Source: Dictyostelium discoideum (lineage: Eukaryota). From it: a DNA stretch of 64,000 bases. Of the stretch, positions 13,820-23,420 are shown piece after piece. Under the pieces are notes generated by a model. The model saw only the letters and a program-made list of their open reading frames with translations. It ran no database searches and had not been told where the DNA came from. Both the position numbers and the translations under genes were made by a program. The stretch lies in assembly GCA_000004695.1 (NCBI GenBank), contig CM000152.2:5792001-5856000 (forward strand), given 5' to 3'. Every line of letters begins with the position of its first letter. The first letter of the stretch is position 1.

Positions 13820-15271
13820 ATGGATAATTATAAATCATTTTCAAAAAATGCAAAGAAAATTTTAAATTCACCGATTTGTAATAATAAAATGCAAACTGCA
13901 CATTATACAGCAATGGAGAATTTATTTTGTCCAGAAACTAATAAAGATGGCTATATTAGTTTAGGGATTGCAGAAAATGTTTTATCATTTGATGTAATGA
14001 AAGATAAATTAAGTGTTGATCCAAATTTTTGTCAAAGATTAACTCAATATAGTGATATGGGTGGATTTAGAGATTGTCGTGAATCAATTGCAAATTTATT
14101 ACAAAATCATCTATTTAAGTATAAACCAATAAATAAACCTGAATTATTAGTTAATTATAAACAAATAATATTGGCAAATGGAGCAACACCATTATTAGAA
14201 AATATATTCAATATGTTTTGTGATCAAGATGAGGTTGCATTAATACCATCACCAATGTTTCCAAATTTTATTCCATTCGCAGGTCAAAGATTTGGTGTTA
14301 AAATCGTTGGTGTTAAAAGTGAAGTTTATAATCATGATAATACTAATAATAATAATGATAATAAAATAATTGATTTCGAATTAAATTTAGAAGAGTTTGA
14401 AAAACAATATCAACTTCATCCAGTTAAATTGGTTGTTTTATGTAATCCAAATAATCCAACTGGTTATATATTTTCAAAGAAACAAATTAAACAATTAGTT
14501 GATTGGTGTAGAAAAAAGAAAATTCATTTATTAAGTGATGAAATTTATGCACTTTCAATTTTTAATGGAAATTATTGTAGTGGTACAAGAGAAGATAATG
14601 AAGATGGTAATGGTAATGACGATAATGATGATGATATTTTTGAAAAAGATGGTGCAAATTTTGAAATACCAACAAATTCATTCTCAAGTATTTATGATAT
14701 ATGTAAAGGTGATATGGGAGAATATGTTCATTTAGTATCATCATTTTCAAAAGATTTCGGATTGAATGGATTTAGAGCTGGTTATTTTTTTTCACAAAAT
14801 CTAGATGTTCAAAGATATTTATTATCAACATCAAATTACTATTCTTGTAGTAACATCGTACAATCGGCATTAATTAATATAATAGAGGATAAGAAATACC
14901 TTTGCTCATTTATAAAAGAGAATCAAAAAAGGTTAACATCATCATATAATTTTGCAACTAAAACATTGGAACATTTTAATATACCCTATTTAAAATCATC
15001 TGCTGGTTTATTCATAACAATTGATCTTAGAAAATGTTTAAATAAATTACCATCATCATTAGAATTAAAAGATAATGATTGTCCATTTAAAAAAGAAATT
15101 CAATTATGGGAATTATTATTTGAAAATAAAGTTTTTTTAAATCCTGGAAAACTTTGTTACTTTGATGAACCTGGTTTTTATAGATTAATATTCACTTTAT
15201 CAAATGAATTTGTTTATAATGGAATTGAAAGAATTTCAAAAGTTTATAATCAATTATTATTAAATAATTAA
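13820..15271 (+). CDS. 1-aminocyclopropane-1-carboxylate (ACC) synthase-like PLP-dependent aminotransferase (class I/II fold), 483 aa, single exon.
   Basis: ATG at 13820. 'YISLGIAENVLSFDVM' corresponds to the ACS 'GLAENQLS' motif. 'LLANGATPLLENI', 'NPNNPTGYIFS', 'IHLLSDEIYALSIF' and the PLP-lysine region 'VSSFSKDFGLNGFRAGYFFS' (compare 'SLSKDMGLPGFRVGAIYS' in ACS) are all present. An internal D/N-rich insertion is typical of Dictyostelium. Confidence 0.8.
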   Translation: MDNYKSFSKNAKKILNSPICNNKMQTAHYTAMENLFCPETNKDGYISLGIAENVLSFDVMKDKLSVDPNFCQRLTQYSDMGGFRDCRESIANLLQNHLFKYKPINKPELLVNYKQIILANGATPLLENIFNMFCDQDEVALIPSPMFPNFIPFAGQRFGVKIVGVKSEVYNHDNTNNNNDNKIIDFELNLEEFEKQYQLHPVKLVVLCNPNNPTGYIFSKKQIKQLVDWCRKKKIHLLSDEIYALSIFNGNYCSGTREDNEDGNGNDDNDDDIFEKDGANFEIPTNSFSSIYDICKGDMGEYVHLVSSFSKDFGLNGFRAGYFFSQNLDVQRYLLSTSNYYSCSNIVQSALINIIEDKKYLCSFIKENQKRLTSSYNFATKTLEHFNIPYLKSSAGLFITIDLRKCLNKLPSSLELKDNDCPFKKEIQLWELLFENKVFLNPGKLCYFDEPGFYRLIFTLSNEFVYNGIERISKVYNQLLLNN

Positions 15272-15532: not shown

Positions 15533-17539
<2,007 letters not shown>

Positions 17540-17632
17540 CTTTGATTTTGATTTTTAATTTCTTGATTCTTTATTTATTTATTTATAAACATAATAAATA
17601 TATATATATAAAATATATATTGAACTTTTGAG

Positions 17633-17664
<32 letters not shown>

Positions 17665-17808
17665 TTTATTATTATTATTTTATGAATTTATTTTTTATTT
17701 TTATTATTTTTTTCACACAAAATAAATAAATAATGCATAAAAATATTTTTTATTATTAATATAAGAAAGAAATTATAAAAAAAGAAAAAAAAATATGGTG
17801 ACTTTTTT

Positions 17809-17859
<51 letters not shown>

Positions 17860-19054
17860 TAAAATAAAAAAAAAAAATTATTTATTATATAATAAAAGTG
17901 GGTGAGTTTGTGGTTGTGAATGTGAGTGTTGGTGTGTGTGTTGATATTGATTGTTTTTTTTTTTTTTAATGTTTAAATATAAATAAATAAATAATTAAAT
18001 AAAAAAATTATTGTTGTTGTGCTTGTATAATTTTTTGAAAAAAAAAAAAAATAAAATAAAAAAAAAAAATCAATTTTTTTTATTATTTTTTTTTTATTTT
18101 TAATTTTATTTTTTATTTTTAATTTTTTTTTTTTTTTTTTTTTTTTTATGGAGGCAAAGGGGTTATCTTGTTTTTTTATTTTTAATTTTTTTTTTTTTAT
18201 TTTTAATTTTTCTCTCGATTAAAAAAAAAAAAAAAAAAAAAAAATTTCCAAAAATGATTCAGCGTGAATTTTTCTTTTTTCTATTTTTTTTTTTTTTTAT
18301 TATTATTTATTTGTTTTTTATTTTTAATTTTGATTACTTTTTCAAAATGAAATAATTTAAAATGAATTATTATTGATTGTTGTAATGTGGTGTGTGTGTG
18401 TGTGTGTGTGGTGTGTATGAGAAGAATAAAATCTTATAAAAAAAAAAAAAAAAATAAAAAAAAGTTTTGGAAAAAAAAGTGTTTTTTTTTTTCTGATTTC
18501 ACTCCTAAATTTTTTTCTTTAATTTTTAAAAATAAAATCCTTCATAATTAGGAAAACTAGTTTTTTTTTTGGGCCTTCTTAAATTTTAAAAAAAAAAATA
18601 AAATAAAAATAATTTTTAAAAATAAAATCCTTCATAATAAGGAAAACTTGTTTTTTTTTTTGGGCCTTCTAAATAAAAATAAAAATAAAAATTAAGAAAA
18701 AAAAAAAGAAAAAAAAAAAATTAGAGATGTTTTTATTTTATTTTAAAATAAAAAAAACAGATTCTTTTTGGTATTCACCAAAAAAAAAACGAACAATGAG
18801 AATTTTTTTTTTTTTTTTTTTTTTTTGCCAATCGAGATTGGGAGTAGGAACGAATAACGAAAGAGAAAAAAAAAAAATGGAAGCGGGAATGAAAATAAAT
18901 ATTAAAATACAATAGTATTTAAATTATTTTATTTTTCATTTTTATCTTTATTTTTTTTTATTATCATTATTATTATTATTTTTTTTCTTTTTTATTATCA
19001 TTATTATTATTTTTTTTTTTTTTTTTTGAAATATTATTTTGTAATTTTTTTAAT

Positions 19055-19085
<31 letters not shown>

Positions 19086-19300
19086 GTTTAGAAGTAGATT
19101 TTTTTTTATTTTATTTTATTTTATTTAAATACTGAAAAAATGAAATAATAACTACATAAAGGAGGGAACTTTTTTTTTTTTTTTTCACACAATAACGGTC
19201 AAAATTTTTTTTTTTTTAATTTTTTTAATTTTTTTTTTTTTTTTTTTTTTTTTTTTGAAAGCCATAAAATTTTTTTTTCCTTTTCCTTTTTTTTTTTTTG

Positions 19301-19332
<32 letters not shown>

Positions 19333-19379
19333 TAAATATTAATATTAATAAATATTAATATAGTTCTTTATAAATTATA
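17540..19379. promoter_or_regulatory. Bidirectional (divergent) promoter region, 1.8 kb, between the glycosyltransferase gene (ATG 17539, minus) and the S/T-rich gene (ATG 19380, plus). Contains GT-rich G-box-like elements and a duplicated element of about 65 bp.
   Basis: Both flanking genes start at its edges. It contains (TG)n/GTGTGAGTG-type elements at 17893..17945 and 18381..18412, a direct repeat at 18521..18585 and 18611..18675, and a GC-richer island at 18829..18890. Confidence 0.5.
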
Positions 19380-19699
19380 ATGTCATCAGTTGAGGAACTA
19401 CAACAAGATCAACTACAACAAAAAGAACAACAAATAGAAGAACAAATAGAAGAACAAATAGAGGAAGAAAAAGAACAACAAGAGGAAATAAAAGAAGGGT
19501 CGATATCGATAAAAGACGATGTTGTAATGACAGTACCCATAATAGAGAACCATTTAAATAATAATAATAGTAATAATAAAATAAATAATAATAGTGTTGG
19601 TGGTAATAATAATATTAATAATAATAATAGCACTAAGAGCAATAGCAGCAATAAAACAATGACATCAAATGTTGCATCAATGGCAGTATCAGCAAAATC

Positions 19700-19730
<31 letters not shown>

Positions 19731-21548
19731 TCATCACCAGTGAAATCCAATAGTTTGAATAGATCAGGTGAGATATCAACAAAAAAAGCATCGACCCCAA
19801 CTAAATCATCTCCATTGTCAAGCGGCAATGACATTAAAAAATCGGGTGAATTAAAAATGAGACCTTCACCAGCATTAGAATATAAAAGATCATCCTCTTC
19901 ATCAAGTTTACCAATTTCATCAACAACAACAACAACTAGTAGTAGTAGTAGTAGTGGCGGTGTTTCAAAGAGAGCATCAGTAAACTTATCATCAACATTT
20001 AATGGTAGCAGTTCAAATATTGCAAGACCATCATCTTCATCAGCAATACAATCACCAACTATAAATAAAACTAAATCACTCACTGGTTCCAGTGGTAGTA
20101 GTAGTAGTGGCAGTGGATCACCATCAAGATCAAATACACCAGTTAATAGCACTATCAAACAAACATCAACCACACCAACTTCATCACCAAGAGTAAAAAC
20201 CACTTCTACTGTATCATCATCATCATCATCATCAACTACAACTACATCTAGATTAGGTTCAACAACAACAACAACATCATCAACAACAGTAACATCATCA
20301 CCATCAAGAGTAGCTTCAACATCAAGTTTAACACCACAAAAATCATTAACACCAAATAGATTATCTGGTACATTTCCAAGAACAACCACATCATCATCAA
20401 CACCAACATCTTCACCATTAAGATCGACATCATCAACAACAACTACATCATCATCTACACCAAATAGACTTTCAAGTACAATTAATAAAGTTGTATCATC
20501 GTCACCATCATCAACATCATCATCATCATCTTCACCAACTAGATCAGCAACACCACTTCCACCAACTAGTACATCAAAATTGTCGTCAACGACATCATCA
20601 TCATCATCATCATCATCTACCCCTAATAAAACACCACTTTCAACAAGATCAACATCAACACCATCATTAAGAACACCAGTTACAAATACAACACCAAGTA
20701 AATCACATTCATCATTTAGTACTCCAACATCATCACCATCTATGAAATCATCACCAGGTAAAGAGATGTTGGAATTTTGGAAGAAGAAAGAGACAGAAGC
20801 CTCACCAAAGAGTTCTCCATCAAGATCATTAACATCTTCACCATCAACTTCTTCACCAAGAATATCTTCAACCACTAGACCAGTGTCAATGACACTTAAA
20901 TCACCTCTTGGTAGTATAAGTAGTAGTCCAAGTAGTAGTGGGGTTAAAAAAACTACTACTACAACAACAACACCATCATCACCACTTCCAAATATTAAAT
21001 CAAGTTTAACAAATGGTAATACACCAACTAAACCAACATCAACAACATCAACATCAACAACAACAACATCAACAACATTATCTTCACCAAAATCTATAAG
21101 AAGATTAAGTACTCCAATACTTTCAAATAATTCAACACCAAATAAAGATTCATTAACCAAACCAAAATCAACATCTGGATTCTCAACATCAACCAAATCA
21201 TCACCTGTATCATCTATTAAAAAACCAACAAATCCAAATCCAACTCAACAATTTGTTTCACCAAGTAAATTATCAATTAATGGTTCAGTATCAAAATCAT
21301 CACCAATTAAAATGTCTGAATTAAAACCTGAAGTTAAACAACAAAAACAACAAGAAATTAAAATTGAACAAGTTGAAATTAAAAAAGAAGAAGAGATTAA
21401 AAAGGTAGAACAAGAGGTTAAAAAAGTTAAAGAACAAGAGAAAACAATTGAAATTATTAATGAGGAAACAATGGATGTTGAAAAAATGGAGAATGAAATT
21501 CAAAACCTTGAAAATCAAATTAAAGAACTTGAACTACAAGAAAAACAA

Positions 21549-21593
<45 letters not shown>

Positions 21594-21609
21594 GTTGAAG
21601 CTGTAGAAG

Positions 21610-21701
<92 letters not shown>

Positions 21702-22376
21702 GATGACCAAATTAAAAAGGTACAAATTGAAAATCAAGAAGAAGTTGCACCATCATCATCTGATATTACAAATGTACCAACTGATGGTATTTTCTTTAGT
21801 ACTGAACAAAAGACAGATGATTCATCAAAAACTCAATCATCAGATTCATCAAATACAGATTCATCAGATTCATCAAATACAGATAAACAAGAATCAACAA
21901 ATTCATCACAATCAACATCTATTATCAATACATTATTAAATCATAAAAAAGATAACGAGGATGATGACGATGACGATGAAGATGAAAATAAGAAGCCATT
22001 AAATAAAATAACAGAAAAAGTTGATGATAAAGAACAAGAGAATAAAAATAATAATGAAGAAACAAAAGAAGAGGAAGAAGAAGAAAAAATTAAACAACAA
22101 GTAACCAAACAAGAAGAAATTAAAGAAGGAATTAAAGAAGTTAAAGAAGAAATTAAAGAAGTTAAAGAAGAAGTTAAAGAAGAAGTTAAAGAGGAAATTA
22201 AAGAAGTTAAAGAAGAAGAAGATGATGATAAAAAACGTAAATTTGAAAAAGTTGAAGATTTAATAACCTCTGGCAAAGTTGAAGAGCCTGTTAAGAAGTT
22301 ATTTGTTCCTCCACATTTCATTACATCACTATCATCACCATCTTTAAATTCAACTTCACCAACTATTTTAGAATCC

Positions 22377-22446
<70 letters not shown>

Positions 22447-23420
22447 TACCATCAACAACGACTATAGTATCAGAAAATACGTCATCCTCTGTGGCAAATA
22501 CAACCACAACAACCACAACAACCACAACAACAACTATACCAATAACAGTTACAACAACACCAACAACTACACCAGTTCAATCATTACATTCTTCATTATT
22601 ATTACCAGTACCAAATTCAATTACTTCAACAACTTCAACACCAACAACTCCAACTACATCACCATCACCTGTATTTAATAAACCAATTTTACCACCAAGA
22701 GACTTAAAAGAAGATACCAAAAAGATTTGGTTAAGAGCATTTTCAACTCTTCCAGTTGGAATGGATTTACCAAGATTAGCATCATGTATTTCAGTTTTCG
22801 ATGCAAGATCATCATCATCATCTGAATCACCAACTAAAGATTTAGCACAAAGAGATAGTCCAAAGAAACAAGTCATTGACGTTTTATTAGGTCTTTTACA
22901 ATTATTCCCAGTTTCAGATGATAATACTACAAGTAAAATTAGAAACTCTGAACAATTGATTGAAACATACACAACCATTGGTGAACCACTACCATTTTCA
23001 AAATCATTATTGGAGAATTTCGGTGAACAGTCACCAATTCTTCAAGCTTTGAAAGCTTGCAATCAATCAATTATCGCACCATCTGTTATCGAATTGAAAC
23101 TTGGTATCTGTCAAAGATTAATGTTCAAAGATGCAGGTGGTTGGGAAATTAGCATAAAGGCCATCGATAATGATACCGTCATCATATCACATGTAAAGAA
23201 ACAACAACATATGGATCCACGTAAAGAAGAAGAATACTTTGAATTCCTTTGGGAGTTGGAATTAATATTCAATGGAGATTTATCAAAATTAAATAATGTA
23301 ACACTATCAATATTAGAATTAAAATTCGGTGAAAAAACAAGACAAGATAAAAAAGATGAATATTTATTATTATTTAATGATCATTTAAAAAATAATAAAA
23401 TAAATAAATTAAATAATTAA
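19380..23420 (+). CDS. Large (1346 aa) Ser/Thr-rich, mucin-like low-complexity protein with a central E/K-rich coiled coil and a conserved globular C-terminal domain. Function unknown.
   Basis: ATG at 19380. There are long S/T/P tracts, an 'EIKEVKEEVKEE' repeat region, poly-Q (21609..21699) and poly-N. The C-terminal region (about 250 aa: 'KIWLRAFSTLPVGMDLPRLASCISVF...GWEISIKAIDNDTVIISHVKK...EYFEFLWELELIF') is not low complexity and looks like a helical + PH-like fold. The antisense track ORFs 19409..21196, 21941..22525 and 22577..22978 are reverse-frame artifacts of this GC-richer coding repeat. Confidence 0.7.

Follow-up and report, generated by a model that had tools for sequence, protein, structure and literature searches.

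The presence of two near-identical copies of a short sequence in the spacer shared by two divergent genes of Dictyostelium discoideum raises the question of whether this doubled DNA works as a pair of small RNA genes or as a duplicated regulatory module, or is a simple local duplication. The analysis has been carried out on a 64-kb stretch of the genome, hereafter referred to as the window, to which all positions correspond unless another locus is named, and on the syntenic loci of related lineages. The comparison of these sequences points, with a probability of about 0.8, to a tandem duplication, confined to one lineage, of some 90 bp of AT-rich DNA between genes, which would be most likely neutral and would encode no RNA or protein.

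Structure and setting of the 90-bp unit

The window has a GC content of 20.7% and includes genes with poly-Asn and poly-Gln tracts. An ACC synthase identical to the D. discoideum AX4 protein (XP_640066.1, Q54SH3) is encoded at 13820-15271, next to the gene pair under study. The divergent arrangement of this pair, a glycosyltransferase gene on the minus strand and an S/T-rich gene on the plus strand, had been correctly described in the original prediction, and the descriptive part of that prediction, a tandem duplication within the shared upstream spacer of the two genes, holds as well. The ATG codons of the pair are at 17539 and 19380. The spacer comprises 1,840 bp (17540-19379) with only 12.9% GC, and the 90-bp unit is located mid-way, at 981 bp from the ATG of the left gene (GT49) and 709 bp from the ATG of the right gene (GlfB_C). 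The features of the locus are the following:

15533-17539, minus strand: left flanking gene, GT49-family glycosyltransferase (Pfam PF13896) with a long poly-Asn tract; ATG at 17539; one 99-nt intron read at 15952-16050
18520-18609, no strand assigned: copy 1 of the 90-bp unit, 61-nt core plus 29-nt A-rich tail, with the ancestral TAATTAGG state kept; based on repeat finders and on the single-copy alleles of loci L022 and L023 (described below)
18528-18537, no strand assigned: 10-mer AAAAATAAAA at the left edge of the unit, proposed left partner in unequal exchange or slippage
18538-18553, no strand assigned: dyad TCCT-N8-AGGA of copy 1, no other part of the unit being conserved into D. citrinum; candidate factor-binding site
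18561-18575, plus strand: GGGCC of copy 1 with the T10 run before it; lineage-specific, with GGGTTTT in L022 and L023 and no T-run here in D. citrinum
18610-18699, no strand assigned: copy 2 of the 90-bp unit, with derived TAATAAGG, CTTG and T11, and an A-rich tail reshaped by indels
18618-18627, no strand assigned: 10-mer AAAAATAAAA at the junction of copies 1 and 2, proposed hybrid repeat left by the exchange
18628-18643, no strand assigned: dyad TCCT-N8-AGGA of copy 2, the same as in copy 1
18651-18666, plus strand: GGGCC of copy 2 with the T11 run before it
19380-23420, plus strand: right flanking gene, S/T-rich, 1346 aa, with a C-terminal GlfB_C domain (PF24929); ATG at 19380

Tandem Repeats Finder has revealed at 18520-18690 a repeat with a period of 90, 1.9 copies, 90% matches, 5% indels and a score of 278, and a second repeat search of the window placed the copies head to tail at 18520-18609 and 18610-18699. 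Together with a pairwise alignment, these results agree with the coordinates first reported for the two copies (18521-18585 and 18611-18675, 90 bp apart). The cores, at 18520-18580 (61 nt) and 18610-18671 (62 nt), were aligned with two substitutions and one T of difference, and the copies are indeed near-identical. The substitutions are T/A (TAATTAGG in copy 1, TAATAAGG in copy 2) and A/T (CTAG in copy 1, CTTG in copy 2), and the T-run is T10 in copy 1 and T11 in copy 2; the A-rich tails are more diverged than the cores, mainly through indels. In the 64-kb window the 37-nt core pattern is present twice and no more, with 0.00 occurrences expected from shuffles. The GGGCC block had been called uncommon, and it was found in the whole window only at 18571 and 18662. 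The hairpin-capable segment attributed to each copy was overstated, however, because the 12-bp palindrome AAAACTAGTTTT is present in copy 1 only and, on both strands, neither the single copies (z +0.06 to +1.59) nor the pair (z -0.87 to +1.50) folded more stably than shuffled sequences.

Short minus-strand ORFs of the unit (MKDFIFKN...) were considered as coding sequence and rejected, because they differ between the copies and their ATG is lost in L021. Two spacer ORFs of 62 aa and 54 aa were not on record in a Logan look-up, and the Logan contigs carrying the ACC synthase end at homopolymer runs, which makes these ends unusable as transcript ends. The core sequence was absent from the full text of the papers searched. 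The GT49 protein has 635 aa in its spliced reading; a 465-bp AAT/ATT array at 16172-16636, within its coding sequence, encodes poly-Asn stretches, and the orthologous GT49 proteins vary in length (called genes: 636, 567, 559, 594 and 502 aa).

Copy number of the unit across lineages

Five syntenic loci were found by way of the proteins clustered at 90% identity with the neighbouring ACC synthase, plus one additional search for homologues, and these five lineages were sampled in the copy-number comparison. The loci belong to the assemblies GCA_054883475.1 (L001/L024), GCA_054859205.1 (L021, labelled D. cf. discoideum), GCA_054859355.1 and GCA_054859385.1 (L022 and L023, both labelled D. discoideum) and GCA_054859145.1 (L030, labelled D. 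citrinum). The assemblies probably stem from Holland et al. 2025 (PMC12745789), a sequencing study of AX2 as laboratory strain, of D. discoideum isolates from the wild, of D. citrinum and of possible cryptic species. The gene order ACC synthase (+), GT49 (-) and GlfB_C (+) is common to all five loci. Homologue searches with the GlfB_C domain and with the GT49 N-terminus gave distant relatives only, in a JGI contig (L002, 62% identity) and in D. purpureum (L003, 71% identity), and the upstream DNA of both was not alignable to the spacer of the window.

Two copies of the unit were found only in the window and in L001/L024, which carries the identical duplication and a spacer differing from that of the window by homopolymer lengths and one substitution alone. 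One copy each is present at the orthologous position of L021, L022 and L023, whose ACC synthase coding sequences are 96.5-97.9% identical to that of the window and whose spacers are 86-90% identical at the aligned positions, and D. citrinum has one copy too, more diverged but at the same syntenic site. The TAATTAGG state of copy 1 is also the state of the single-copy alleles, and the TAATAAGG state of copy 2 is derived. Both copies of the window contain AAAAC-T[A/T]G and GGGCC, and L022/L023 contain AAAAACCAG / AAAAAACAG and GGGTTTT; the polarity of CC versus TT in this stretch (GGGCC/GGGTTTT) is ambiguous because L021 is deleted at that point. Since both copies share bases that set their lineage apart from the others, the duplication postdates the split of that lineage. 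The half of the unit formed by the T-run and GGGCC is not conserved even within D. discoideum, and unrelated sequence replaces it in D. citrinum.

At the level of sequence, this comparison establishes the single copy as the ancestral state and confines the duplication to the lineage of the window and one near-identical second assembly, presumably the AX4/AX2 laboratory lineage. The two substitutions that separate the copies suggest that the variant arose in nature and not during laboratory culture, although this argument is drawn from only two differences. According to the original prediction, the absence of small RNA reads and of other genomic copies would point to a simple local duplication, and with regard to copies this agrees with the sequence covered: the unit is single-copy in four other genomes, with no more copies in the approximately 170 kb searched.

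The window and GCA_054883475.1 differ in length at 17816-17828, 18058, 19010-19012, 19057-19060 and 19295-19300, by up to 13 T, and their single substitution is located at 18246. These homopolymer differences may be real variation or homopolymer sequencing error.

Possible functions of the unit

The copies had been proposed as a pair of small ncRNA genes, either Pol III-type or class I-like; each copy would then produce a short RNA ending at the oligo-T. Dictyostelium ncRNA genes do occur in intergenic spacers (PMC7919456) and each copy shows a short inverted repeat followed by T10 or T11, but the oligo-T is uninformative because the 1.84-kb spacer holds 19 runs of T10 or longer and 52 runs of T5 or longer, and a T5 run is found within the putative RNA itself. 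Class I RNA genes measure about 60 nt and carry an 11-nt motif, a terminal stem whose ends are conserved and, about 60 nt upstream, a DUSE (Kjellin et al. 2021, PMC7919456). With the DUSE defined as [A/T]CCCA[C/T]AA (WCCCAYAA), preceding the RNA start or a TGTG box by about 60 nt (PMC7919456), the DUSE-like motifs looked for upstream of the element were absent from the spacer (17540-19379) on either strand. The nearest one lies inside the GlfB_C coding sequence, at 19535, and the window contains a total of 7, against 9.2 expected by chance. The B box GGTTCGAANCC had no match at two or fewer mismatches within 2.9 kb of the element, ARAGORN detected no tRNA in the 64-kb window, and a reading of the unit gave no CTGT 3' end. 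The sequence CCTTACAGCAA, taken as the D. discoideum class I 11-nt consensus, was not matched in the element at two or fewer mismatches. Rfam 15 gave nothing at the gathering threshold in the whole window (Rfam may hold no class I family) and, at E<=10 in 17500-19400, only chance matches, located on a T-run/A-run hairpin at 18803-18885, to models of miRNAs, leaders and lncRNAs. The consensus fold of six homologous sequences obtained with RNAalifold was a 4-bp TCCT/AGGA stem with 0 compensatory changes. Every sequence feature tested (DUSE, 11-nt motif, B box, Rfam, fold and covariation) thus fails, the 3' half with the T-run and GGGCC is not conserved and the relatives are single-copy, and the proposal of RNA genes, now extremely improbable, is already refuted at the level of sequence tests. 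Transcription by Pol II could also be considered, each copy being a core promoter and the duplication giving two tandem plus-strand start sites. In Dictyostelium, transcription starts about 2 bp after a sense-strand poly-T, with TATAAA(A/T)(A/T) at about -29 (Chang et al. 2012, PMC3371697), and transcript ends are followed by sense-strand poly-A (PMC3371697). Each copy has its T10 or T11 tract, which belongs to the 19 long T-runs of the spacer, followed by a G/C-containing stretch, and CATAAT[T/A]A about 25 bp upstream of the T-run end. However, TATAAA(A/T)(A/T), which would be expected on the sense strand at -37 to -21, is absent from both copies, the nearest ones being at 18435 and 19369, and a sense-strand A11 run starts 17 nt past the predicted start, which by the same rule (PMC3371697) marks a transcript end. 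The T-run is also absent in D. citrinum, the first ATG of a real gene comes only 709 bp further on, and a far better promoter candidate adjoins the GlfB_C gene, with T-runs at 19287-19299 and 19301-19327 followed by the conserved stretch 19328-19367, all of which makes core promoters in the unit very unlikely.

A G/C-containing composition that is unusual for the spacer, with GGGCC nowhere else in the 64 kb, would agree with the landing of a dispersed repeat or mobile element between the genes, as a fragment or a solo copy. The orthologous site is nevertheless occupied in every lineage examined, including D. citrinum, and the unit is therefore not an insertion; no further copies were found in the window or in any fetched locus, nor were nearby tRNA genes of the kind that attracts Dictyostelium TRE elements, and the probability of this origin is practically negligible. 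A duplicated cis-regulatory module, the other function originally proposed, would require the dyad to be a transcription-factor site whose doubling changes the expression of GT49 and/or GlfB_C in the laboratory-strain lineage. The unit lies in the upstream DNA of both genes, its left half and dyad, with the fixed N8 spacing, are kept in all lineages of the D. discoideum clade and in D. citrinum, and TCCT-N8-AGGA is otherwise absent from the window (0.29 expected by chance). The left half is somewhat better conserved than the spacer average, and the duplicated DNA may consequently not be functionally inert. On the other hand, the identity of this left half (18517-18556) to D. citrinum is 78% against a spacer background of 70%, which ranks about 11th among the 40-bp windows of the spacer, and the single occurrence of the dyad before the duplication is not statistically unusual. 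No match of the unit to known Dictyostelium factor motifs was found with the tools used, one copy suffices in three wild lineages and in D. citrinum, and far better conserved blocks lie closer to each gene (19328-19367, 98%; 18331-18370, 92%). A duplicated module is consequently unlikely, and a cis-regulatory effect of the unit is, as judged from the sequence, possible but unsupported. The more specific proposal that a doubled dyad for a dimeric factor would be a natural cis-regulatory variant, altering GT49 or GlfB_C expression specifically in the NC4-derived laboratory lineage, is slightly more doubtful still. If the cis-regulatory reading were true, the variant would be specific to the NC4-derived lineage used in most Dictyostelium work.

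A scan of metagenome contigs for the 19-mer CCTTCATAATWAGGAAAAC gave 17 matches, which were discarded as chance because of their unrelated flanks and a GC content of 26-52%.

The comparison also maps the constrained blocks of the 1.84-kb spacer between the divergent genes (18331-18370, 19236-19275 and 19328-19367), and it is there that real regulatory elements should be sought. The AT-rich mid-spacer block at 18331-18380, TGATTACTTTTTCAAAATGAAATAATTTAAAATGAATTATTATTGATTG, is near-invariant across the lineages of the D. discoideum clade and 92% identical to D. citrinum against the 70% background. Its RNA fold is not convincing, with a z of +0.38 for the plus strand and of -2.0 for the minus strand (the latter for a structure of -3.6 kcal/mol), and it is a better candidate cis-element than the duplicated unit. 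GT/TG-rich arrays at 17899-17943 and 18386-18416 vary in length between lineages, with an expansion of 38-45 bp at 17932 in L022 and L023 and a different 18386-18416 array in every lineage. Presumably, these arrays resemble the G-box or GT-rich sites of Dictyostelium developmental promoters.

Upstream of the ATG at 19380, the stretch 19287-19379 contains T-runs followed by the 40-bp block 19328-19367, which is 98% identical to D. citrinum. T-runs and conserved block match the poly-T/start rule (PMC3371697) and probably correspond to the start site and 5' UTR of GlfB_C. A further block at 19150-19204, AACTACATAAAGGAGGGAAC-T16-CACACAATAACGGTCAAAA, is conserved in all four lineages of the D. discoideum clade, its exact motifs not being found in D. 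citrinum. With a TATA-like CATAAA placed some 29 bp ahead of the T-run end, it may be an alternative core promoter. This block was paired with the duplicated unit at 75% identity in the repeat search, largely through the T-run.

A recurrent motif of the spacer consists of a T-run of at least 10, a G/C-containing island of 17-73 nt and an A-run of at least 10, and is found at these positions:

18123-18244: T-run/island/A-run motif
18561-18598: T-run/island/A-run motif
18651-18707: T-run/island/A-run motif
18803-18877: T-run/island/A-run motif

The islands 18148-18162 and 18827-18865 are conserved among the lineages of the D. discoideum clade. No island has a more stable fold than its shuffled controls. 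The motifs may be connected with the way A/T tracts are organised in nucleosome-free regions (PMC3371697). In the D. purpureum locus L003, an exact DUSE, TCCCATAA, was found at 151-158 of that locus, followed by a T-run and upstream of the GT49 homologue, whose downstream neighbours differ from those of the GT49 locus of the window.

Origin of the duplication and comparison with known systems

The duplication probably originated by unequal exchange or replication slippage between two direct repeats of AAAAATAAAA bracketing the segment, after which two substitutions and several length changes of A/T runs would have been acquired. In the single-copy alleles this 10-mer is present twice, 77 bp apart (at 14574 and 14651 in L022, and at 14647 and 14724 in L023), and the pair brackets the segment that is duplicated in the window, from its left edge to its A-rich right flank. 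However, AAAAATAAAA is common, with 110 occurrences in the 64 kb, and its location at the borders is consistent with exchange or slippage without being a proof; later run-length changes must also be assumed to reconcile the 77-bp spacing of the single-copy alleles with the 90-bp period of the window. The case for this mechanism, built on the position of the repeats, is circumstantial. The result would be a doubled, weakly conserved TCCT-N8-AGGA dyad and 90 bp added to the shared spacer, and any plausible activity would be limited to this indirect effect.

The spacer is prone to indels, with at least 6 further differences in length, between 15 and about 120 bp, among four lineages and 364-410 gapped alignment columns; they include expansions of TG arrays and, in L021, a large deletion. 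The window contains five more intergenic repeats that are AT-rich and two-copy, with periods of 60-72 bp and identities of 76-79%. Given these lower identities they are older, and the 90-bp unit would be, within a common class, the youngest case and the easiest to read; it attracts attention because its sequence is more complex and better preserved than that of the other long-period repeats of the window.

The deletion of L021 (about 14500-14540 of that locus, corresponding to 18580-18854 of the window) removes up to about 250 bp of spacer directly to the right of the element, and appears to fuse one T-run-plus-GCC stretch to another. As a second large rearrangement at the same spot, it suggests that T-run/GC junctions are fragile.

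Overall, the locus contains a real, lineage-specific 90-bp tandem duplication in an indel-prone AT-rich spacer, which is probably neutral and matters little. A candidate ncRNA locus can be taken off the list, and the composition of the T-run and GGGCC is a lineage-specific accident and no conserved signal. The duplication provides, in addition, a clean structural marker of the AX4/AX2 lineage against the wild D. discoideum lineages sampled.

The unit has been compared with three known systems. Like class I RNA genes (PMC7919456), it is intergenic, short (about 60 nt) and followed by a T-run, but those genes have a DUSE about 60 nt upstream and a TGTG box in register, and the element has neither; the AAG start, the CUGU end, the terminal stem, the 11-nt motif and a covariance-model match (among the Rfam models searched) are all absent from it. 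With Dictyostelium Pol II core promoters (PMC3371697) it shares a poly-T tract, a G/C-containing stretch after it and an A/T-rich box about 25 bp upstream; it differs from them in having no consensus TATA, an A-run 17 nt downstream, no gene within 700 bp and a T-run that is not conserved in D. citrinum. The third system, that of two-copy minisatellite-like length variants arising in AT-rich, repeat-rich DNA between genes by unequal exchange or slippage at short direct repeats, shows the same head-to-tail copies, single-copy sisters and shared lineage-specific bases, together with direct repeats that in the unit are putative partners of the exchange at the borders, and likewise the surrounding length polymorphisms and similar older repeats elsewhere in the window. 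There is no essential difference from these variants, the 90-bp unit being only more complex and better preserved (90% versus 76-79%), and the duplication looks like an ordinary length variant.
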